A stretch of 15,558 bases of DNA from an uncultured archaeon (GTDB taxonomy: Archaea; Asgardarchaeota; Heimdallarchaeia; Heimdallarchaeales; Heimdallarchaeaceae): positions 1-15,558 of the forward strand of contig CAZHRF010000056.1 in the NCBI GenBank assembly GCA_964534625.1, read 5' to 3'. Below the pieces are notes generated by a model, which saw only the letters and a program-made list of their open reading frames with translations, did not search any database and had not been told where the DNA came from. A program made the position numbers and the translations under genes. How positions within the stretch are numbered: the stretch's first letter is position 1; each line of letters starts with the position of its first letter. Positions 2,032 to 11,387 of the stretch are shown here, in pieces.

Positions 2032-2427
2032 TTAATCCTCTTTGTATTTTTCTATCAGTTTTTTTATTTTTTGTTTTATTTTATCCCTTACTTCTCTATA
2101 TTTTCCAATATCCTTACCTTTTGGGTTCTCTAGATCCCAATTTTCCACTTTAGGGAGAAAGATAGCTGGACAAGCTCCCTCTGCATCACACCCCATAATT
2201 ATGATTCTGTCTGCCCATGACCAGTCATTTACACGTTTAGAAGTATGATTAGAAATATCTATGTCTACTTCTTTCATTACTTGAATGGCAAGTGAATCAA
2301 CTTTATGTCCCGATTCCGTTCCGCCTGATTGAACCTCGATTATTCCTTTACCATATTCTCTCGCAAATGCTTCCGCCATCTGACTTCTACAAGAATTGTG
2401 GACGCATACAAAATGTATCTTTTTCAT
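2032..2427 (-). CDS. arsC: Arsenate reductase ArsC, LMW-PTP fold, thioredoxin-type
   Basis: P-loop CVHNSCRSQMAE, the distal Cys pair MGCDAEGACP, and W-x-L-x-[DN]P...R-x-VRD-x-I. Confidence 0.85.
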   Translation of the reverse strand: MKKIHFVCVHNSCRSQMAEAFAREYGKGIIEVQSGGTESGHKVDSLAIQVMKEVDIDISNHTSKRVNDWSWADRIIIMGCDAEGACPAIFLPKVENWDLENPKGKDIGKYREVRDKIKQKIKKLIEKYKED

Positions 2428-2504: not shown

Positions 2505-3422
2505 TTACCCATCAAATTTGTTGATAAATGCTTGTGGCACAACAAACGGTTGTTTATGATCAGCTAAAGTGATGGAAGCATAGTAAGCTTCTTCATTAAT
2601 CATCTCACCTTCAGCTTCAAATGGATAGGGGTGTTTCAGTTTCAGTTCAATTTTACGCCCTCGGCAAAAATGAACCCCTTTTGCCCCTAAATGTTTTCCT
2701 TTTTTTAATTTATTAATCAAATTAAACATTCGAATTTTAGCAATATTTCCAGCATAACACATACCAAAATCGCTATTGAGGGGAGAATTATCAGGTAAGA
2801 CTTCAAAACCACCTCCAAAGCTACATCCAAGTCCAACTGCACACATAACTAAATTAGTCGTAATTGGTTCATTATTATCAATAATTATCTGTGTTTCACT
2901 ACTCTTAAAAGTAAAAATGTTCAAAAGTCCCGATAAGTAATATTTGGGTTGCCCTTTTAACCATTTATATTTATAAAGGACATCGCGTGCAACAAGGGAG
3001 GTTATGCCCATTTCTGCTATATTTAGAAAATACCTCTTTGTAGTGCTCTCTGCTATACCAACAGGCACCTCATAGATATTTCCTTTGGTGATTTCTGCAA
3101 TACATTCATCAATATTGGTAGTTAAACCTAATGAATTGGCATAATCATTACCATTACCTACAGGTATAGTACCTAATGCAGTGCTGCTTCCATACAAACC
3201 TTGTAATATTTCATTCATGGTACCATCCCCCCCAACAGCAATAATTTGATCAAAATTATTTTTTTCATCCATAGCCAAGACTGTTGCGTGACCTCTCTCT
3301 TTGGTAAATCTTACTTTAAAATCAGAAAAGATGGTTTTGATTTTTTTTTCAATAGTAGGCCATATTTTTTTAACATGAGCATTTTGTGATGCGGGATTAA
3401 CTATAAATAAAGTTGATTTCAC
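2505..3422 (-). CDS. Diacylglycerol kinase family (YegS/DagK-like) lipid kinase
   Basis: IVNPAS, GGDGTMNE, IPVGNGNDYA, FLN and GGG motifs. The C-terminal EGE corresponds to the usual DGE. GTG start. Confidence 0.9.
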   Translation of the reverse strand: MKSTLFIVNPASQNAHVKKIWPTIEKKIKTIFSDFKVRFTKERGHATVLAMDEKNNFDQIIAVGGDGTMNEILQGLYGSSTALGTIPVGNGNDYANSLGLTTNIDECIAEITKGNIYEVPVGIAESTTKRYFLNIAEMGITSLVARDVLYKYKWLKGQPKYYLSGLLNIFTFKSSETQIIIDNNEPITTNLVMCAVGLGCSFGGGFEVLPDNSPLNSDFGMCYAGNIAKIRMFNLINKLKKGKHLGAKGVHFCRGRKIELKLKHPYPFEAEGEMINEEAYYASITLADHKQPFVVPQAFINKFDG

Positions 3423-3526
3423 AAGTGTTCTTTTTTATGGTGTTTATAAGTTTTTAATCCTTTCATATGCATGAAATAGAAGTAAGGTTGAAATAACTCT
3501 ATACTTAAAAAGTCTCTTTTCACCTA

Positions 3527-4405
3527 TTAGTTTAATCTTAAAACGCGTCTAACAGTAGTTAAAGCATCTATTGCCTTTAATCTAACCCTATCATCTTCAT
3601 CTTCTGTGCTACATGAAATGAGTGGTTGAATAACTCTTTCGTCTGGGACATTACTGAGGTTTTCACATGCTTGAATTTTCACCTCAAGATCTTCATCTTT
3701 CAAAGCATGGATGTTAACATCTATGAATTGATTTTCGTTATTTTTCCACCCAAATTTTTCTAGCTCTTTAACTACTTCTAATCGTATTTTAGAATCTCTA
3801 TCACTCATCGCTCTTTTATACAATTCGAAGTGATTGTTCTTAACTGCAAGTCTGATTAATTGTACTGCGGTTTTTCGAACTAGTGCATTTTCATCATTGA
3901 GTAAAGGGATAATTAACGAGTTATCAATCATTCCTTGAAAACTTAATAAAGATCTTCTTGCCTCTTCAACAACTGTTTCACTTTCGTCTTTTAACGCTCT
4001 AAATAGCGGAAGAACTACATCGGGTTCAGTAAAATCAGATAATATTTTTGCTGTCGTATATCTTACATTCTGTGAATCATCATTTAATCTGGCGATTAAC
4101 TCTCCAAGAATTTCATTGTCATGAAATTTGGCGAGTGATGTAACACACGCTTCCCTTACCTTCCATGAAGTGTCAGTTAGGTGCTCCTTTAAAGGAAGAA
4201 AGGCTTTTTCTTGTCGTATATCACCTAAAATTTCAGCTGCATAGGTGCGAACATCAGGATCCGTATCGTATAAAGTATTAATTATTTGATCTATAGCAGA
4301 GTCTCTATCGGGATGTTTTGAAATCTCTTCAATGGCAAATAGCTTTAAAGCTGAGTTATCACCCTTTAATAATTTTAAATGCTCATTAATGTCTTTGGAT
4401 GTCAT
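3527..4405 (-). CDS. HEAT-repeat (PBS-lyase-like) protein
   Basis: Repeated ~31-aa units of the type L-x-D-x-x-x-x-VR-x-x-A-x-x-x-L: LYDTDPDVRTYAAEIL, LTDTSWKVREA, LNDDSQNVRYTTA, LNDENALVRKTAV, DEDDRVRLKAIDAL. Confidence 0.9.
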   Translation of the reverse strand: MTSKDINEHLKLLKGDNSALKLFAIEEISKHPDRDSAIDQIINTLYDTDPDVRTYAAEILGDIRQEKAFLPLKEHLTDTSWKVREACVTSLAKFHDNEILGELIARLNDDSQNVRYTTAKILSDFTEPDVVLPLFRALKDESETVVEEARRSLLSFQGMIDNSLIIPLLNDENALVRKTAVQLIRLAVKNNHFELYKRAMSDRDSKIRLEVVKELEKFGWKNNENQFIDVNIHALKDEDLEVKIQACENLSNVPDERVIQPLISCSTEDEDDRVRLKAIDALTTVRRVLRLN

Positions 4406-4462
4406 GAATTTCTCTAATATAAACTATTTATCCATGTTAATAAGAGTTATTGCAAGATAAAA

Positions 4463-4702
4463 CTAAGAAAAGGTTTCCTTTAGCTGCCGCATAGCTTTAT
4501 CGATAGTTAGGTGGGATAATTCTTCTGCCTTAGAATAATGTTTTCCACAAAACCATTCGGCAAAAGGGGGATGGCCTATAAAATTGCCCTTTGCTGCTTT
4601 TTTCTTCCATCGAATATCAGATTGTCTAAGGGCAAAATAAATTAATCCACCATCATCTTTAGATAATCTTTCATCGCAAATAGCGCATATGGGGGGTCTC
4701 AT
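4463..4702 (-). CDS. Small hypothetical protein, putative Zn-binding (CxxC ... CxxH)
   Basis: MRPPICAICD...GHPPFAEWFCGKH. ATG 4702 is the likely start; the ORF track starts at 4726. Confidence 0.65.
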   Translation of the reverse strand: MRPPICAICDERLSKDDGGLIYFALRQSDIRWKKKAAKGNFIGHPPFAEWFCGKHYSKAEELSHLTIDKAMRQLKETFS

Positions 4703-4803
4703 AGTACTAAAAAGGAGACTATACATATAAAGAGTTTGTAACTATTTAAAGAAGAACCAATATTTTTTAAATAAGAGTGCTTACTGTTCGTTAGGTGTAC
4801 ACT

Positions 4804-5076
4804 ATGGCAAAAGTAAAAGCAAGTCACATATTAGTTAAAAAAAAGTCCCTAGCAGAAGACATATTACAACAATTAAAAGATGGAGAAAAATTTTCTAAAT
4901 TAGCTAAAAAACATTCTGAATGCCCTTCAGGTAAAAGAGGTGGCAATTTGGGATTCTTTACAAGAGGTAAAATGGTAAAGCCATTCGAAAATGCTGCTTT
5001 TAATCTTAAAAAAGGTGAAATATCGGATATTGTTAAAACAGATTTCGGTTATCATATCATAAAGAGAACTGGATGA
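4804..5076 (+). CDS. ppiC: Parvulin-type peptidyl-prolyl cis-trans isomerase, single domain
   Basis: ASHILVK, F-x-x-LA-x-x-HS-x-CPS-x-x-x-GG-x-LG-x-F-x-RG-x-MV-x-PFE and T-x-FGYHII motifs. ATG 4804 follows AGGTG. Confidence 0.95.
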   Translation: MAKVKASHILVKKKSLAEDILQQLKDGEKFSKLAKKHSECPSGKRGGNLGFFTRGKMVKPFENAAFNLKKGEISDIVKTDFGYHIIKRTG

Positions 5077-5117
5077 TCTCTCCGTCTTCCGTCTCTTTAT
5101 TTTTCTTTCTATTTTTA

Positions 5118-6095
5118 TTACTTATCGATATTAATTAAAGAATCAAGTGAATGTTCTAAATCTTTCTCAGTCGTTTCTAATAATTCTTTTTTATCTTCAT
5201 GTTCAATTCCAACAAATATATCCTGTTCGTCAGTTTGAACACCAAATGCCATCCTAGGGGTATTCCAAGCCAGACCAAATCCTTCTTGACCTAAAGCTAT
5301 AACTCCACCCAATCCATTGACTGATTCGGTTAGATGTTTAATAGCTTTATTTGTAGCAACTTTGACATCATTTGTTTCTTCATAGTATTGATGAACACGC
5401 CTAGAGATTAGTGTTTTGATTAAATCTTCTCCATATCCTGTTGCTGCGACCCCTATAGAATCAGGTTCAATATATGCTCCTGCACCAAATAATGGTGTAT
5501 CACCTACTCTAGATGGGGCTTTTTTTGGTGTTCCTCCCGTTGAAACAGCTACAGCAACATTACCCTTCTTATCCATAATAACTGTACCAACAGTCCCCTT
5601 AGATTTACCTCGAAAAGCGTCTTTGGGGAGAAAATCTCGTTTTGTTTTAAGTTTTTCATATCGATCTAATTCTCTGCCTACTAATAGATTAGTAGGTTCC
5701 ACAAGTTCAAAACCTTGCTGTTGAGCGAATAAATTAGCTCCTTTACCCATTAGTAGAACTGGTCCATTATTATCTAATACTCTTCTAGCTACTTTTACGG
5801 GATTCTTGATATTCTGAAGGGCAGCAACTGCCCCTATGTTATACTGATCATCAGCAATAATTGAATCCATTTCAACCTCGCCTATGGCGTTCAAGAAAGA
5901 ACCTTTACCCGCATCAAATGTAGGATCATTTTCTAAAAAAACAATAACCGCTTCAACAATATCAAGAGCTTTTTCGCCTTTTTCTATTAGTTTGTTGCCT
6001 AGTTTAATGGCATGTTCCATACCTGAAAGGTGATTATGAACTGCATCATCGGGGATATCCCATGCTCCACCATGAACAATAATTCCAGATTTCAT
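5118..6095 (-). CDS. iaaA: Isoaspartyl peptidase / plant-type L-asparaginase (Ntn hydrolase)
   Basis: IIVHGGA, LE-x-DP-x-FDAG-x-GS, the GTVG autocleavage Thr, STGG, RVGDTP and TG-x-GE motifs. Confidence 0.92.
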   Translation of the reverse strand: MKSGIIVHGGAWDIPDDAVHNHLSGMEHAIKLGNKLIEKGEKALDIVEAVIVFLENDPTFDAGKGSFLNAIGEVEMDSIIADDQYNIGAVAALQNIKNPVKVARRVLDNNGPVLLMGKGANLFAQQQGFELVEPTNLLVGRELDRYEKLKTKRDFLPKDAFRGKSKGTVGTVIMDKKGNVAVAVSTGGTPKKAPSRVGDTPLFGAGAYIEPDSIGVAATGYGEDLIKTLISRRVHQYYEETNDVKVATNKAIKHLTESVNGLGGVIALGQEGFGLAWNTPRMAFGVQTDEQDIFVGIEHEDKKELLETTEKDLEHSLDSLINIDK

Positions 6096-6179: not shown

Positions 6180-6302
6180 ATGTCTGATTATCTATTTACA
6201 GAAAACGAAAAAGAATTTCTTGGAGAAAAATTATTGGCAACTTTTGTAACAATGAACACAAAAAACTATCCTCATGTTTTTGGAAATCTTCGCCGTTCAT
6301 AG
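6180..6302 (+). pseudogene. 40-aa ORF resembling the N-terminus of a PPOX/pyridoxamine-phosphate-oxidase-like (split-barrel flavin/F420) protein, truncated
   Basis: Not in the ORF track. MSDYLFTENEKEFLGEKLLATFVTMNTKNYPHVFGNLRRS* follows the FL-x4-A-x-x-x-T-x5-PHV pattern of this family and then stops. Family resemblance is by eye only. Confidence 0.45.
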
Positions 6303-6333
6303 TTTTTTGATGTGTTTCAGAGAAGTCAGATTG

Positions 6334-6364
6334 ACATATCGAGGGATATCGATATGTTTATAAA
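6334..6364 (+). promoter_or_regulatory. Palindromic operator (ACATATCGA-N6-TCGATATGT) abutting an archaeal TATA box
   Basis: Perfect 9-bp inverted repeat at 6334-6342/6349-6357. TTTATAAA at 6357-6364. GGAGA ribosome-binding site at 6388-6392, ahead of ATG 6400. Confidence 0.75.
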
Positions 6365-6399
6365 TTCATAGCTTTCCCAACTAAATAGGAGATTAATTT

Positions 6400-6780
6400 A
6401 TGACCAAAGTAGGGTTTATTCTTTGTGTTTGTACTGGAGATTGTCCCGGATTCGCGACAATGAATATATGGGATCTTATCAATCAAGTTCGTCTTGTTTT
6501 ACCTGTCGAATGGGCTATTGTTCATCCACAGTTATGTGAAACTGACGGAGATAGATTTGTGGAGAATTTAATTCAACTTGTAAATGACACTCAAATGAAA
6601 TATTTCATTGCAGGTTGTTCACCTAATATGCAAAGAAAACTAATAGGATTTGGTTTCAAGAAAGCGGGATTAGACTTTAAAGAATGGGTCATGCCATTAG
6701 ATGTAAGAAACATGACAACTGATCAAGCTTTTGAAGCTATTGAAAAAACACTCGAAGAGTGGGGAGTTACTAATGAGTGA
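6400..6780 (+). CDS. Stand-alone HdrA N-terminal-like Cys-rich (putative Fe-S) protein
   Basis: KVGFILCVCTGDC...HPQLC...IAGCSP parallels the HdrA N-terminal domain (IGVYVCHCG...YMCS...VAACSP). No FAD-binding GxGxxG motif follows. Confidence 0.65.
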   Translation: MTKVGFILCVCTGDCPGFATMNIWDLINQVRLVLPVEWAIVHPQLCETDGDRFVENLIQLVNDTQMKYFIAGCSPNMQRKLIGFGFKKAGLDFKEWVMPLDVRNMTTDQAFEAIEKTLEEWGVTNE

Positions 6781-7075
6781 AGATAACCCCTCTATTCCCA
6801 AACAAATTCATAGATTCATGGGTGTAGATAGAAAACACATCGATTGGTTTCCCATTATAGATTATACCAAATGCAACCATTGTAAAGATTGTGTAGAATT
6901 TTGTGCTCATGGAGTATATACGATTAACGATGAAAAAGTGGAAGTAAAGAATCCAAAAGATTGTGTGGTTTTTTGCCAAGCTTGTATAAAAATGTGTCCG
7001 AAAGATGCATTGATTTTCCAAGATAAAAAAAGTGTTTTAAAGCAGATAAAACAAATTAAAGCATCAAAAAAATAA
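6773..7075 (+). CDS. 2x[4Fe-4S] ferredoxin
   Basis: CNHCKDCVEFC and CVVFCQACIKMCP cluster motifs, preceded by IDWFPIID. ATG 6773 overlaps the upstream gene and follows GGGGAG. Confidence 0.88.
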   Translation: MSEDNPSIPKQIHRFMGVDRKHIDWFPIIDYTKCNHCKDCVEFCAHGVYTINDEKVEVKNPKDCVVFCQACIKMCPKDALIFQDKKSVLKQIKQIKASKK

Positions 7076-7084
7076 TGCTAGAAA

Positions 7085-8002
7085 GTGAGTGAAGTTACAA
7101 TGGATTACTCGGAAAAATACAGATTTATTTCATGCATGGGCTGTGAAAAACTATTAGGACAAATAGCTACTGCCTGCAGTTTGCTTCTAGAAAAAAAACA
7201 AGAGGAATTGAACCTTATTTTCAAACCTTCCTTAGCACAAATTGCTGCAGACAAATCCAATGAATCAGAACATGAAATGGATATTATTGCTCTAAATGGA
7301 TGTATGTCACAATGTGTTAATGCCATTTTATCAAACAAGGGTTTGAAAGCATCATATATACTAAACATGCCTAAAATACTAAAAGAGTTTCAGATTCCAG
7401 AGGGAATCAAATATACCCCCGATTTATTAGAAAATCAAAGTATAGTCAATATCACTTCCGGAATTGAAAAAGCAATAATAGCGTTTTATGAGAAAAAAGA
7501 TAGTACAAGTGAAACAACAGCAATCTTTGATTTTACTCCTGAATATTCTAATACTTTAGAATTTACATATAGTAAGTTTCATTTCGTTGTTCCTGTCAGT
7601 AAAGGGCAACTTTATTTCAATTGGAATGATGCATGGGCATATGATATTGGGAACGGAAAGGTTGTTATTGGAATTACTGATTACCTCCAAAAAAATTTAT
7701 CCGATATAAGTTGGTGTGAATTTCCTGCTATAAATACAGAAGTAGGACAATTTGAAGAAGTTGCAACGCTTGAGTCTTATAAAACTGTAGTAGAGGTATT
7801 AAGTCCATTTAGTGGAAAATTAGTTCAAGTAAATAAAAAATTAGAAACTAATCCTGAATTAATAAATGATGATCCACATGGAAAAGGATGGATTGCAATT
7901 TTAGAAACACATAATCTTTCAGAGGAAAAAGAGGATTTAATGACCAGTGAACAATATTTTGAATTTATGAAAGAAAAAATAGAAGAACAAGGTGTACACT
8001 GA
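7085..8002 (+). CDS. Fusion of a DGC-like (putative zinc-binding) domain and a glycine-cleavage-H-like lipoyl domain
   Basis: N-terminal ISCMG...IIALNGCMSQC (DGC variant). C-terminal IGITDY...LESYKT...SPFSG...N-x-x-L-x-x-x-PELINDDP-x-GKGW. The lipoyl-acceptor Lys (K233, codon 7781-7783) is retained. Confidence 0.85.
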   Translation: MSEVTMDYSEKYRFISCMGCEKLLGQIATACSLLLEKKQEELNLIFKPSLAQIAADKSNESEHEMDIIALNGCMSQCVNAILSNKGLKASYILNMPKILKEFQIPEGIKYTPDLLENQSIVNITSGIEKAIIAFYEKKDSTSETTAIFDFTPEYSNTLEFTYSKFHFVVPVSKGQLYFNWNDAWAYDIGNGKVVIGITDYLQKNLSDISWCEFPAINTEVGQFEEVATLESYKTVVEVLSPFSGKLVQVNKKLETNPELINDDPHGKGWIAILETHNLSEEKEDLMTSEQYFEFMKEKIEEQGVH

Positions 8003-8424
8003 TGACTGAAACAAAAAAAGTGAACATATTACCATGTAGCGGTATTGGAAAAGCTTTAGGTACATTAGCACGTTGGAGTGCTTATGAGATTGTAGAAAAT
8101 ACATTACCTGAATATACGCGCTTACTCTGTCTAGCTAGATTAGTTGTAGCTGATGAAGAGTCTAAAGAAATAATCTCAAAAAATTTTAATATTACAATGG
8201 ATGGTTGTCCAAAAGCTTGTGCAAAAAAAAATGTTGAAAGAAATGGAGGAAAAGTGCAACAATCATATCAAATTGCGAAGTTTTTAGTCAAAAATCGAGA
8301 TTTAAAGATTAATTCCCAAAATGTGATCGACCCAGGTCCAAAAGCATTACAATTAGCAAAAAGAATTTCTGACGATATTGCAGTCGATATAAAAGCATTA
8401 CTAAGTGATAAGGAGGAAAATTAA
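8002..8424 (+). CDS. DGC domain protein (putative zinc-binding)
   Basis: ILPCSG...LLCL...TMDGCPKACA. TGATG stop/start overlap with the upstream gene. Confidence 0.85.
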   Translation: MTETKKVNILPCSGIGKALGTLARWSAYEIVENTLPEYTRLLCLARLVVADEESKEIISKNFNITMDGCPKACAKKNVERNGGKVQQSYQIAKFLVKNRDLKINSQNVIDPGPKALQLAKRISDDIAVDIKALLSDKEEN

Positions 8425-8426
8425 AG

Positions 8427-8852
8427 ATGAGTCCAGCAAAGCCAAAATATGTTGGATTATTATCATGTAGTGGAGAAGAGTACCCTGGGGGGACGGTAAG
8501 TCGTATTGCTACTAGGCGTGTTCTCCAAGATATGTTACAAGCAATAACCACCACTATTTGCGTACCACTATTCTTAGCCGGAGATGAACAAGAAAGGGAT
8601 TTCGTGAAGAAGTTTCCATGTGTCACAATAGACGGGTGTGAAAAAGCATGTGCAAAAAGAGCTCTTGATGAAATGGGAATAGAGCCAGTAGAAACAATAA
8701 TTTTGAATGACTATTTCACCGAAGAAGAATATAAAGAAATTTCTGAAGGATCTGTGCATGATTTAAAGTGGAAAGATCATCCATACTGTCAAAGATTAGC
8801 AGAAACACTGGCAGATATGGCTGTAAAAATAGTGAACCCTGATCAAGATTAA
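8427..8852 (+). CDS. DGC domain protein (putative zinc-binding)
   Basis: LLSCSG...TICV...TIDGCEKACA. GGAGG ribosome-binding site at 8412-8416. Confidence 0.85.
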   Translation: MSPAKPKYVGLLSCSGEEYPGGTVSRIATRRVLQDMLQAITTTICVPLFLAGDEQERDFVKKFPCVTIDGCEKACAKRALDEMGIEPVETIILNDYFTEEEYKEISEGSVHDLKWKDHPYCQRLAETLADMAVKIVNPDQD

Positions 8853-8874
8853 TTGTAAAATTATTGGTTACTGG

Positions 8875-8895
8875 TTTTCTATGCTTTTTTCTTTC
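8875..8895 (+). terminator. T-rich archaeal-type terminator after the operon
   Basis: TTTTCTATGCTTTTTTCTTTC between the convergent stops at 8852 and 8896. Confidence 0.4.
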
Positions 8896-9315
8896 TTAAT
8901 TTTCTAAATGCTTTTGTATAATAGCTTTGAAAAAATTCGCATCGAATTCTTCATATTCTGTTTCAAGAACACTCCATTTTCCACTTTTCTCCATTCTGAT
9001 CGCTTTAGCATTAACTAATAAATTAAGGTGATGAGAAATAGTTGACTGAGATAATCCTGCAATATGTTCGATTTCGCAAGGGCATGAAATACCTTTCATA
9101 ATTAGTTTAAGTATTAAAAGTCTATTTTTATTGGCTAACGCCTTGAATAATCTTAACAATTGCTTTAACTCTGGGTCTTTTTCCCAATGGGCATATTCTT
9201 TTTTAATGAGGTCTAGTTTGTCTAAACGTTCTTCTAATGATTCCTTTATCAATCCTTGTTCATGTAGTTGATCTAGCTTGTCCTTTACTTCTTCATAGTC
9301 TACCTTTTTGTTCAT
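8896..9315 (-). CDS. arsR: ArsR/SmtB family transcriptional regulator with a CxC (alpha-3) site
   Basis: FKALA-x-x-x-RL-x-IL...SCPCEI...LSQSTISHHL-x-x-L, comparable to the ELCVCDL motif of As(III)-sensing ArsR. ATG 9315 is the likely start; 9339 and 9396 are alternatives. Confidence 0.88.
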   Translation of the reverse strand: MNKKVDYEEVKDKLDQLHEQGLIKESLEERLDKLDLIKKEYAHWEKDPELKQLLRLFKALANKNRLLILKLIMKGISCPCEIEHIAGLSQSTISHHLNLLVNAKAIRMEKSGKWSVLETEYEEFDANFFKAIIQKHLEN

Positions 9316-9493
9316 TGAATCACTTTGATTACTGTACATAAATTTTATTTTAGAAGTATAAATATATTTAGATATTAAAGAACGTGAATACGACACATCA
9401 TAACCAAAAAAATCACTAATATGAGCCTAAAGAAGAAAACCATTCAATAAAAGTATTATATTTCCTAAAAAAAATCTAGAAAAATCAGAATAC

Positions 9494-10285
9494 TTAAAAT
9501 TCTAAAGTAAGATTAATGGGACAATGATCAGATCCAAGTACATTAGACATGATGGTTGAATTTTTAACTTTGTCAACAATATCTTCTGAAACAAAGAAAT
9601 AATCCAAACGCCAACCTACATTTCTGTTCCTGGCTCGAGTTCTGTAACTCCACCAAGTATACTGGTCAGGTTGATCGTGAAAAGCTCTAAAAGTATCAAT
9701 ATATCCACTTTTAATAACTTTATCTATCCATTTTCTTTCAATAGGTAAGAAACCAGAAATGTTTTCATTAGCTTCTGGTCGGGCTAGATCGATTGGTTTA
9801 TGCGCTGTATTGACATCTCCACAAAAAACAATGGATTTACCTTGTTCTCTTTTTCTATTAATATATTCTAAAAAGTGCTCGTAAAATTCCATTTTATAGT
9901 CTAGTCGCTCTTGACTTCTTTTTCCATTAGGAAAATAAACATTGTAGAGTATAAACTCGGGAAATTCTGTTTCTAAAATTCGTCCTTCTTTGTCAAATTT
10001 TCTGATACCTAGAGAAAAATCAACGTTTAATGGTTCTTTTCGAGTATATGTTGCAACTCCACTATATCCTTTTCTTTCAGCTGAAGCCCAGAAACTACGA
10101 TAATCAGCGATATTGGTTAGTTTTTTAGGTAATTGTTCTACGCTTGCTTTAGTTTCTTGAAAACATATTACTGTGGGTGCTTCTTTTTTGACCCATTCGA
10201 TGAAATTTAAACCATTTAAGACCTCTTTCTTATAGATAGCTCTGATACCATTGACATTCCAGGAGATTAAGTCATATTTTTTCAT
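9494..10285 (-). CDS. xth: Exodeoxyribonuclease III / AP endonuclease
   Basis: SWNVNGIRA, QETK, GYSGVA, EGR, YFPNG, GD-x-N-x-AH, YTWWSYR, GWRLDYF and SDHCP motifs. Confidence 0.97.
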   Translation of the reverse strand: MKKYDLISWNVNGIRAIYKKEVLNGLNFIEWVKKEAPTVICFQETKASVEQLPKKLTNIADYRSFWASAERKGYSGVATYTRKEPLNVDFSLGIRKFDKEGRILETEFPEFILYNVYFPNGKRSQERLDYKMEFYEHFLEYINRKREQGKSIVFCGDVNTAHKPIDLARPEANENISGFLPIERKWIDKVIKSGYIDTFRAFHDQPDQYTWWSYRTRARNRNVGWRLDYFFVSEDIVDKVKNSTIMSNVLGSDHCPINLTLEF

Positions 10286-10370
10286 TAAAAATAACAAGAT
10301 ATGGTTTTAATAAAAATTTTGTTTAATTTATGACATTTTTGCACTAATAATTTTTATCTATCTTTTTGCT

Positions 10371-11108
10371 TTAATCATGTTCGTTACTAATAATTGGTTC
10401 AACATTATAAACGACTTTACCACCCCATCTCACTTCTCCTGTTCTGTAAATGGGATTATTGCGAATGTAATATATACCACTTTGAGAGAGGTTAAACCTT
10501 TCTGCTATGGTCTTGACCCTCACTCCCTGTTCTATCATAGAAAATATCTGCTCAACTATGAGTCTCTTTTCTTCATCAATCTCAAGTTTTCCTTCCACAT
10601 TTATTTTGTAGCCAAATGGTGCTCTTGTCATGGCTTTTTCTTCTTTGATCCTTCTTTTTCTTCCTTCTTTGGCTTTTTCCCTGTATTTTTTGAGTTCTTC
10701 TGCTCCCAATATATCTTTAACACGCCTAACTATCTCTTCTTTATCATCATCAACTGCGCAAATTTGGATATTTTCTCTCTTTAAAAGAATAGTAATGTGC
10801 CCTAAATAATCAATATCTCTGCTGAGTCTATCTCTTGTCTGGACCCATACTTCGTTTACTGAATTGTTTGTTTGTTTATTTTTATGAATATAGTCAAGCA
10901 AATTTTTGAATCCTGTCCTGAATTCCGGATCACTGTCCCCACTTACATTTTCATCTATAAAGAATTTGGAAATATAACGCTGAACTGAAGGATCTTTGGC
11001 TTCTAATTCATCTATATACTGATTAATCACCGCTTTTTGTGTTTCAATTCCAGATGATTGCTCATCAGTTGAGACTCGTAAATACCCTACTGCATGCACT
11101 AATGACAT
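10371..11108 (-). CDS. Serine recombinase: resolvase catalytic domain plus a short recombinase-like domain
   Basis: GYLRVST (catalytic Ser), Q, DENVSG...R-x-G and DRLSR motifs, then APFGY...IF...NPIY-x-x-G as in the DNA-binding recombinase domain. Confidence 0.9.
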   Translation of the reverse strand: MSLVHAVGYLRVSTDEQSSGIETQKAVINQYIDELEAKDPSVQRYISKFFIDENVSGDSDPEFRTGFKNLLDYIHKNKQTNNSVNEVWVQTRDRLSRDIDYLGHITILLKRENIQICAVDDDKEEIVRRVKDILGAEELKKYREKAKEGRKRRIKEEKAMTRAPFGYKINVEGKLEIDEEKRLIVEQIFSMIEQGVRVKTIAERFNLSQSGIYYIRNNPIYRTGEVRWGGKVVYNVEPIISNEHD

Positions 11109-11219: not shown

Positions 11220-11387
11220 ATGCCAACATGTCATGATATGAAAAAAGGAGAGATCTATACCTGTGAAGGGTGTGGATTTGAAATCCAGATATTAAAGGAA
11301 TGCACATCCTGCCAAGATACAACAGATTGTAGTTGTGAAGAGCATTGTGATTTTTCCTGCTGTGGATCTCCAATGGTAAAGAAATAA
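11220..11387 (+). CDS. 55-aa Cys-rich desulforedoxin-like / metallothionein-like protein
   Basis: Not in the ORF track. MPTCHDMKKGEIYTCEGCGFEIQILKECTSCQDTTDCSCEEHCDFSCCGSPMVKK*. GGTGA ribosome-binding site at 11209-11213. A-rich BRE plus TTTATCTA at 11180-11187. Confidence 0.8.
   Translation: MPTCHDMKKGEIYTCEGCGFEIQILKECTSCQDTTDCSCEEHCDFSCCGSPMVKK

Follow-up and report, generated by a model that had tools for sequence, protein, structure and literature searches.

A five-gene ArsR-linked cassette of an Asgard archaeon as a putative accessory module of arsenic regulons in anaerobes

What role could an operon have that places two iron-sulfur (Fe-S) proteins, three cysteine-rich DGC domains and a lipoyl carrier under an arsenic-type repressor? 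The question is raised by a contig of 15,558 nucleotides (nt) from an uncultured archaeon of the Heimdallarchaeaceae (CAZHRF010000056.1, assembly GCA_964534625.1). The window analysed here is this entire 15.6-kb contig (C56), and the genome to which it belongs comprises 3.37 Mb and is about 90% complete. A sequence-only reading had described five co-oriented and closely packed genes at 6400-8852 behind one palindrome and a TATA box. Our check of the open reading frames (ORFs) and of the sequence confirmed this five-gene ArsR-linked operon. Families were assigned by Pfam and NCBIfam profile cut-offs, and the operon consists of the following features (protein lengths in amino acids, aa).

6334-6357, ArsR operator, a perfect 9-6-9 inverted repeat ACATATCGA-N6-TCGATATGT with arms at 6334-6342 and 6349-6357
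6357-6364, plus strand, TATA box TTTATAAA, which shares the final operator base and lies about 35 nt 5' of the g1 ATG
6400-6780, plus strand, g1, 126 aa, free-standing domain of the HdrA N-terminal type (predicted [4Fe-4S])
6773-7075, plus strand, g2, 100 aa, 2x[4Fe-4S] ferredoxin
7085-8002, plus strand, g3, 305 aa, DGC::GcvH fusion (PF08859 and PF01597)
7127-7378, plus strand, DGC domain of g3 (PF08859)
7610-7975, plus strand, GcvH-like lipoyl domain of g3 (PF01597, 112 bits)
7781-7783, plus strand, codon of the lipoyl-lysine K233 in an E-S-Y-K motif, with invariant residues in the alignment
8002-8424, plus strand, g4, 140 aa, DGC protein (PF08859), 1-nt overlap with g3
8427-8852, plus strand, g5, 141 aa, DGC protein (PF08859), 2-nt gap after g4
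8896-9315, minus strand, convergent ArsR/SmtB repressor, 139 aa, 43 nt past the g5 stop

The two operator arms of 9 nt are 100% complementary across a 6-nt spacer. The g1 and g2 genes overlap by 8 nt (ATGAGTGA), and g2 is translationally coupled to g1. An alternative ATG of g3 at 7100 would give a g2-g3 gap of 24 nt instead of 9 nt. An ars operon encodes an arsenical efflux pump or an arsenate reductase under ArsR control; the five genes themselves include none for a pump, a reductase or a methyltransferase. We consider it probable on balance that the cassette is an accessory module of the arsenic regulons of anaerobes, in which a relay from Fe-S clusters to lipoyl and Cys dithiols would serve arsenic handling.

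The regulator and its operator point to arsenic. The ArsR protein matches PF01022 (HTH_5) with 44.2 bits (cut-off 22) and NF033788 with 68 bits (cut-off 55). It has an N-terminal extension of about 60 aa and carries SCPCE, a CxC motif, at the α3 position, where GISCPCEIEH precedes LSQSTISHHL. These matches and the motif bear out the earlier description of a convergent CxC-type ArsR closing the operon. Judged by this motif, the repressor appears to be of the As(III)-sensing, R773-like type (ELCVCDL-type site). The operator core CATATCG-N(0-10)-CGATAT occurs three times in the 3.37 Mb of the genome and not once in each of three Markov-1 simulations. The three sites are as follows.

C56, 6334-6357, site 1, the operon promoter in the window
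C2:20964, site 2, a divergent ArsR2/ArsP_1 promoter, where the site abuts TTTATAAA with the same junction as at site 1
C7:25535, site 3, the ACR3 promoter, with the core 16-25 nt 5' of the ACR3 gene

The loci at sites 2 and 3 contain the following genes, with positions counted within each locus (C2 locus L013, G000:C2:14000-30000; ACR3 locus L094, G000:C7:21000-29000).

C2 locus, 4350-5348, minus strand, thioredoxin-reductase-like gene
C2 locus, 6507-6959, minus strand, ArsR paralog (ArsR2)
C2 locus, 7024-8418, plus strand, ArsP_1 permease
C2 locus, 8437-8679, plus strand, MTH895/ArsE-type thioredoxin-like protein
C2 locus, 8888-9325, minus strand, single-domain DGC protein with three Cys
ACR3 locus, 3381-4538, minus strand, ACR3
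ACR3 locus, 4535-4547, palindrome ACATATCGCGATAT

The ACR3 protein passes its equivalog cut-off (355.6 vs 282.8 bits). The window ArsR and ArsR2 are 62% identical, and ISCPCEIEHI is the same in both. Because the operator core is found only at the cassette, at the ArsP locus and at ACR3, the cassette appears to belong to an arsenic regulon together with the ACR3 pump and the ArsP-type permease. Profile annotation of the window ORFs found no gcvP/T/L, hdrBC, flavoprotein or pump. The earlier remark that no pump is present therefore stands for the window, but it needs the correction that ACR3 and ArsP are linked to the operon in trans by the common operator core. The closest relatives of the cassette have a different ArsR gene, upstream and co-oriented, and different palindromes; the operator is specific to the ArsR paralogs of this genome. 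A second, weaker tandem operator site is present in the divergent C2 promoter. The right operator half together with the TATA box (ATATCGATATGTTTATATA) is found again at C2:132544-132553, 5' of an ORF whose 732-aa product has a hydrophobic N-terminus, and this half-site could be a regulon member or a chance occurrence.

The cassette is not confined to this genome. A degenerate-pattern scan built from the g1 alignment found 342 stretches matching g1 in species-representative genomes, and the best 80 of these 342 served as the conservation sample. All ORFs of the 80 loci were clustered, and the clusters were annotated with Pfam and NCBIfam. Neighbouring ars genes were counted within 8 kb of the cassette, and the ArsR motif within 400 bp. 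The order g1, ferredoxin, DGC-GcvH, DGC, DGC is invariant in the 80 archaeal and bacterial loci, and the core and neighbour genes were found as follows.

Core, g1, 80/80 loci
Core, ferredoxin adjoining g1, 79/80 loci
Core, DGC genes, 76/80 loci
Core, DGC-GcvH fusion, 73/80 loci
Neighbour, ArsR, 64/80 loci
Neighbour, ArsC of the low-molecular-weight phosphatase (LMWP) type, 22/80 loci
Neighbour, dihydrolipoyl dehydrogenase, a true Lpd (TIGR01350, 514 vs 408.8 bits), 20/80 loci
Neighbour, PF04060 Fe-S protein, 19/80 loci
Neighbour, cysteine desulfurase, 18/80 loci
Neighbour, ArsE-type thioredoxin-like protein, 17/80 loci
Neighbour, ArsA, 16/80 loci
Neighbour, DsbD, 15/80 loci
Neighbour, ACR3, 13/80 loci
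Neighbour, ArsP, 11/80 loci
Neighbour, LplA, 11/80 loci
Neighbour, DUF166, 11/80 loci
Neighbour, ArsD, 8/80 loci

At least one ars gene besides ArsR lies within the counted distance in 38 of the 80 loci, and ars operons of Acetobacterium, Clostridium, Eubacterium and Asgard genomes contain the cassette. In C. ljungdahlii (locus L086), A. woodii and E. limosum/callanderi its neighbours are arsD/arsA/acr3/arsC. The motif CxC[D/E] is present in 44 of the 47 ArsR proteins close to the cassette. The homologue and neighbourhood search thus agrees with the sequence-only reading that the ArsR-linked genes form a unit, which is conserved as a block in archaea and anaerobic bacteria. The block sits with ars genes and not with gcvP/T or hdrABC genes, and gcvP/T and hdrBC are absent from the recurrent neighbours of the 80 loci. 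Of the outcomes that were to refute the sequence-only reading, neither a lack of conservation elsewhere nor a place beside gcvP/gcvT or full hdrABC was thus observed. The statement that no flavoprotein is present holds for the window but not for the wider system, which includes Lpd at the 20 loci listed above.

These neighbours also bear on a broader explanation, in which the operon would be a general relay for thiol, peroxide or disulfide stress. The lipoyl H-domain would then feed Cys repair proteins, and arsenic would induce the operon through thiol stress only. Lpd and LplA, co-encoded at many loci, would fit such a relay, as would Trx, DsbD and Usp among the recurrent neighbours. We regard it as rather unlikely. 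No peroxidase gene was found in the window or among the recurrent neighbours of the 80 loci, the regulators are nearly all ArsRs of the CxC As(III) type, and in this genome the operator is common only to the ArsP and ACR3 loci.

Carriers among the archaea are Lokiarchaeum ossiferum, Heimdall-, Frey- and Jord-archaea and Bathyarchaeia; bacterial carriers are Acetobacterium spp., Eubacterium limosum/callanderi, Clostridium ljungdahlii/ragsdalei, Desulfovibrio and Bacteroidales. The closest relatives of the cassette come from metagenome-assembled genomes of Promethearchaeia (Asgard). Close relatives of the DGC::GcvH fusion are few; those with a source name are all Promethearchaeia, and the contigs of these relatives carry the same unit with ArsR. 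Against the same relatives, g1 is 79-83% identical and the fusion protein g3 47-52%, so that g1 is far better conserved than its neighbours. The g1 family is small among 1.84 billion representative proteins, and nearly all members are free-standing proteins of 100-135 aa. Within the phylum, g1 was found in 51 of 301 sampled genomes. The sample included 28 other genomes from the family of the window, all without g1; the nearest g1 belongs to another family (79-80% identity). A tblastn search of a plasmid collection with g1 gave no match. Genes for an exonuclease III-family protein (9494-10297, minus strand) and a serine recombinase/resolvase (10371-11108, minus strand) lie just past ArsR. Because the cassette is absent from the 28 family genomes, it is accessory here; this absence and the nearby recombinase and exonuclease III genes together suggest that it may have been acquired laterally.

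The first protein of the operon has no Pfam match. C9, C11, C15, C46, C73 and H42 are invariant in an alignment of 53 sequences. The predicted g1 model (pLDDT 90) convincingly matches only HdrA chains (Foldseek E 1e-5 to 4e-4), and it superposes on HdrA residues ~3-140 with VIA Z 10.3-12.1 and a root-mean-square deviation of 2.6-2.9 over ~119 residues. The g1 family profile also matches HdrA (7bkb_A residues 4-95, E 2.3e-5). In the profile alignment, C9, C11, C46 and C73 are common to HdrA, whereas C15 is absent from it. Since both the fold and the profile match HdrA and C15 is not shared, g1 appears to be a free-standing domain of the HdrA N-terminal type with one extra invariant Cys by the cluster ligands. 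The superposition and the profile match uphold the HdrA-like identity that had been proposed for g1. By homology, g1 would hold a [4Fe-4S] cluster. In ferredoxin:thioredoxin reductase, a Cys acts next to the cluster, and by this analogy Cys15 of g1 could, speculatively, work beside its cluster.

The likeness to HdrA (PDB 5ODC, 7BKB, 8RVY; N-terminal domain/MvhD) is one of fold and of four aligned Cys. HdrA is a chain of ~650 aa with a thioredoxin-reductase-like flavin adenine dinucleotide (FAD) domain and ferredoxin domains, whereas g1 has 126 aa and lacks these. HdrA works with HdrBC or hydrogenase partners, and the window contains no CCG-domain gene. A heterodisulfide reductase was ruled out for the cassette by the missing FAD domain and the missing HdrBC. 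The second protein, g2, is a 4Fe-4S dicluster ferredoxin with Fer4_7 (31 bits vs a cut-off of 27), Fer4_10 and Fer4_9 above cut-off. Its Cys motifs are C34/C37/C40/C44 and C64/C68/C71/C75; seven of these Cys are invariant in 45 sequences, and C64 is present in at least 90% of them.

The g3 protein joins a DGC domain (residues 15-98, 38 bits) to a GCV_H domain (residues 176-297, 112 bits). All 45 aligned sequences have E230, S231 and K233. The PF01597 match and the intact lipoyl lysine support the lipoyl carrier recognized earlier from the sequence. GcvH (PF01597, TIGR00527) has the same fold family and the same lipoyl-lysine motif, but g3 is fused to DGC, does not stand beside gcvT/P and scores under the GcvH equivalog cut-offs (TIGR00527, 96.6 vs 115.85 bits; NF002270, 110.7 vs 117 bits). 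A role as a glycine cleavage component was ruled out by these scores and by the distance from gcvPT. A separate canonical gcvT-gcvH-gcvPA-gcvPB locus is present on contig C10, so the H-domain of the cassette is a supernumerary paralog. The genome also has a further lipoyl enzyme locus.

C1, 154000-166000 (locus L095, G000:C1:154000-166000), complete 2-oxoacid dehydrogenase locus with E1 alpha, E1 beta, lipoyl E2, Lpd and LplA

Lipoylation is possible in this genome because LplA and Lpd are encoded, both inside the 2-oxoacid dehydrogenase locus. The classic target in poisoning by arsenite and organoarsenicals is lipoic acid, and the organism has several arsenite-sensitive lipoyl enzymes, given its 2-oxoacid dehydrogenase and gcvT-H-PA-PB loci. 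The cassette might be thought to supply a repair or replacement function, with a lipoyl protein that arsenic induces as a decoy or backup and that shields or replaces the poisoned lipoyl domains of GcvH and the 2-oxoacid dehydrogenases without any hand-off to a pump. The canonical GcvH and the E1-E2-E3 complex would indeed be poisoned by arsenite, and the H-domain of the cassette is an extra paralog. However, a decoy would have no need of a fixed gene order with two Fe-S proteins and three conserved paralogs of DGC, and the H-domain falls under the GcvH equivalog cut-offs. We consider a decoy or backup very unlikely.

The DGC domains make up most of the remaining cassette. With a PF08859 gathering cut-off of 27 bits, g3 scores 38, g4 51.8 and g5 66.8 bits. 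C14, C45, C71 and C75 of g5 are invariant in the alignment, and g4 has the same Cys pattern. The g5 model (pLDDT 93) shows a flavodoxin-like α/β/α fold, in which the invariant Cys are located at the ends of strands 1-3 and at the start of the following helix. Neither a profile search against PDB sequences nor fold searches gave a convincing solved relative of DGC. The best fold matches (6n2n_A, Z 8.6; 3pu6_A, Z 8.3) are in the range that the tool assigns to common arrangements. Homology between DGC and g1 was tried as an explanation and rejected, with a profile-profile probability of 11%; the Cys at strand ends are a topological likeness only. In the window's lineage, the g3 DGC domain has lost the strand-2 (β2) Cys and gained a Cys beside the first one (CMGC). 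Such a compensating gain is seen in six of the seven g3 sequences without the strand-2 Cys, with CMGC and CCG as two solutions. Because of this ligand swapping, the DGC Cys suggest a four-ligand metal or Fe-S site. The sequence-only reading had taken them as relay thiols; the Cys pattern speaks for a metal or Fe-S site instead of free thiols. Only three Cys are present in the g3 of L. ossiferum and in the fourth DGC protein of this genome. No selenocysteine (TGA) was found at a conserved Cys of g1-g5 in the fetched loci, where all Cys-aligned stops lie in pre-start extensions.

Pfam characterizes DGC as a domain that has four Cys and probably binds Zn. A Zn-binding description is echoed in a preprint (bioRxiv 10.1101/2022.10.17.512643). 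On this basis, the DGC proteins could be merely structural Zn-binding proteins in a neighbourhood without shared function. The invariant gene order, the overlapping coding sequences and the co-occurrence in two domains of life would be unexpected for unrelated genes, and they make this explanation extremely improbable.

For the favoured accessory module, we propose the following scheme. The operon would be repressed by the As(III)-type ArsR and would represent one copy of a widespread ars accessory cassette of anaerobes. We infer that low-potential electrons enter through the ferredoxin g2 and the HdrA-N-type g1 and pass on to the three DGC domains, whose Cys probably form metal or Fe-S sites. 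From there, the electrons would reduce the lipoyl disulfide that the GcvH-like part of g3 carries. The resulting dihydrolipoyl dithiol may capture As(III) or methylarsenite and pass them to the ACR3, ArsP or ArsA pumps. Alternatively, it may be a private reductant for thiol-dependent enzymes such as ArsC and the ArsE-type thioredoxin-like protein. In many bacteria, the co-encoded dihydrolipoyl dehydrogenase would tie the lipoyl arm to NAD(H). That protein-bound dihydrolipoate, reduced by ferredoxin via the HdrA-derived [4Fe-4S] module and DGC, is a high-affinity trap and hand-off for arsenite or methylarsenite is a possibility that we put forward only tentatively.

An experimental link between DGC and arsenic comes from Pseudodesulfovibrio mercurii ND132, in which an operon of ArsR5, ArsP, ArsE (PF13192) and DGC (PF08859) is reported to be significantly up-regulated by arsenic added to cultures (bioRxiv 10.1101/2022.10.17.512643). 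That operon has the same architecture as the C2 locus of this genome. It is the sole experimental link of this kind that we found, and it concerns the C2-type operon rather than the five-gene cassette. Complex prediction of g1 and g2 with g3 as partner gave a median of 0.38, and a control in which an unrelated protein replaced g1 gave 0.68; the two scores speak neither for binding nor against it.

Several points weigh against an arsenic relay. No ars gene besides ArsR lies within 8 kb in 42 of the 80 loci, and sensors of the ArsR family can answer to other signals. The number of Cys in DGC varies from 3 to 4. Lipoate is the most arsenite-sensitive dithiol, which makes a reductant role during arsenic stress paradoxical unless binding is the purpose. 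The neighbouring cysteine desulfurase, DUF166/DfsP-like, CC/Se-like and DsbD/Trx proteins would fit sulfur or general thiol redox functions as well.

This last point leads to the known systems. GcvH-like lipoate-binding proteins can act outside carbon metabolism, as in sHdr-LbpA, where Hdr-like Fe-S subunits receive sulfur from the lipoate-bearing LbpA (Cao et al. 2018, PMC6067878). The cassette resembles sHdr-LbpA in having a GcvH-like protein outside glycine cleavage, Hdr-derived Fe-S proteins and, at 11 of the 80 loci, an LplA-type ligase. However, it has only the ~126-aa HdrA N-terminal domain and no FAD domain. The sHdrB (CCG), sHdrC and DsrE/TusA proteins of that system are absent from the window and from the recurrent neighbours of the 80 loci. 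Sulfur-oxidation genes stand near sHdr, whereas the cassette has ArsR and ars genes, and DGC is not part of sHdr. Identity with sHdr-LbpA was rejected for lack of HdrB/HdrC, DsrE and TusA.

A looser relationship, in which the cassette would handle sulfane sulfur, selenium or tellurium in a manner akin to sHdr-LbpA with DGC in an HdrB-like role, seems to us improbable. The combination of an HdrA-derived domain, a ferredoxin, a GcvH-like protein and a dedicated LplA does recall that system (PMC6067878). Cysteine desulfurase with the PF04060 Fe-S protein (18-19 of 80 loci), the DUF166/DfsP-like and CC/Se-like neighbours and a TehA-type transporter adjoining the unit in one relative (L008) point the same way. 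On the other side, the recurrent neighbours include no HdrB/CCG, DsrE or TusA, the specific partners are ars pumps, ArsC, ArsD and ArsA, and the ArsR has the CxC site for As(III) and not a BigR- or SqrR-type pair.

Lipoyl-protein peroxidase relays are known from Lpd-DlaT-AhpD-AhpC of M. tuberculosis and from L-protein, H-protein and OsmC of Trichomonas vaginalis. The arsenic-regulated cassette would share with them a lipoyl carrier whose swinging dithiol hands reducing equivalents on to Cys proteins, and Lpd accompanies it at 20 of 80 loci. It differs by its ferredoxin-type Fe-S input, by DGC acceptors in place of peroxiredoxins and by the absence of a peroxidase gene. Compared with known ars operons (ArsR, ACR3, ArsP, ArsD/ArsA, ArsC, ArsE-type), the cassette is likewise under a CxC-type ArsR, but none of its five proteins is a described ars product. 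In our literature search, neither a description of the five-gene cassette nor a role of a lipoyl or HdrA-N protein in arsenic biology came up; the queries with "DGC domain" were dominated by papers on diguanylate cyclases. We would class the cassette as an accessory module of ars regulons, so far undescribed, that probably works in the manner of a lipoyl-protein redox relay.

Other features of the window were also recorded, including the following gene.

2032-2427, minus strand, ArsC-like arsenate reductase of the LMW-phosphatase type, with a CX5R loop and C80/C86

This ArsC-like gene lies ~4 kb from the operon. Its product does not reach the equivalog cut-offs of NCBIfam, and the window sequence shows no operator upstream of the gene. 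The 300-bp gap 5' of the operator contains an ORF of 40 codons (6181-6303, plus strand) with an 11-nt perfect inverted repeat at its end (6259-6269/6299-6309). Where this genome has the short ORF, the closest relatives have an ArsR gene. A mini-ORF at 11220-11387 (plus strand; 55 aa, 10 Cys) had been pointed out in the sequence-only reading. Small Cys-rich proteins whose family is unknown recur beside the cassette in relatives (L008:7833-8431; L017:7218-7511, minus strand, and 4632-5051, plus strand; L031:13872-14147). Among them are a weak member of the CC/Se-motif family, a 97-aa VCAC protein that shares its transcript with ArsR and an extra DGC, a 139-aa protein after ACR3, and a 91-aa HesB-like protein with GCC...GCC between ArsA and ArsD.

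If the proposed role is correct, a lipoyl protein co-regulated with arsenic pumps would reverse the picture of lipoate as a target of arsenic and would add a new resistance step in anaerobes. The DGC family and a free-standing domain of the HdrA type would also gain their first assigned function. Since the carriers include Lokiarchaeum ossiferum and acetogens that are in culture and amenable to genetics (Clostridium ljungdahlii, Acetobacterium woodii and Eubacterium limosum), the question is directly testable.

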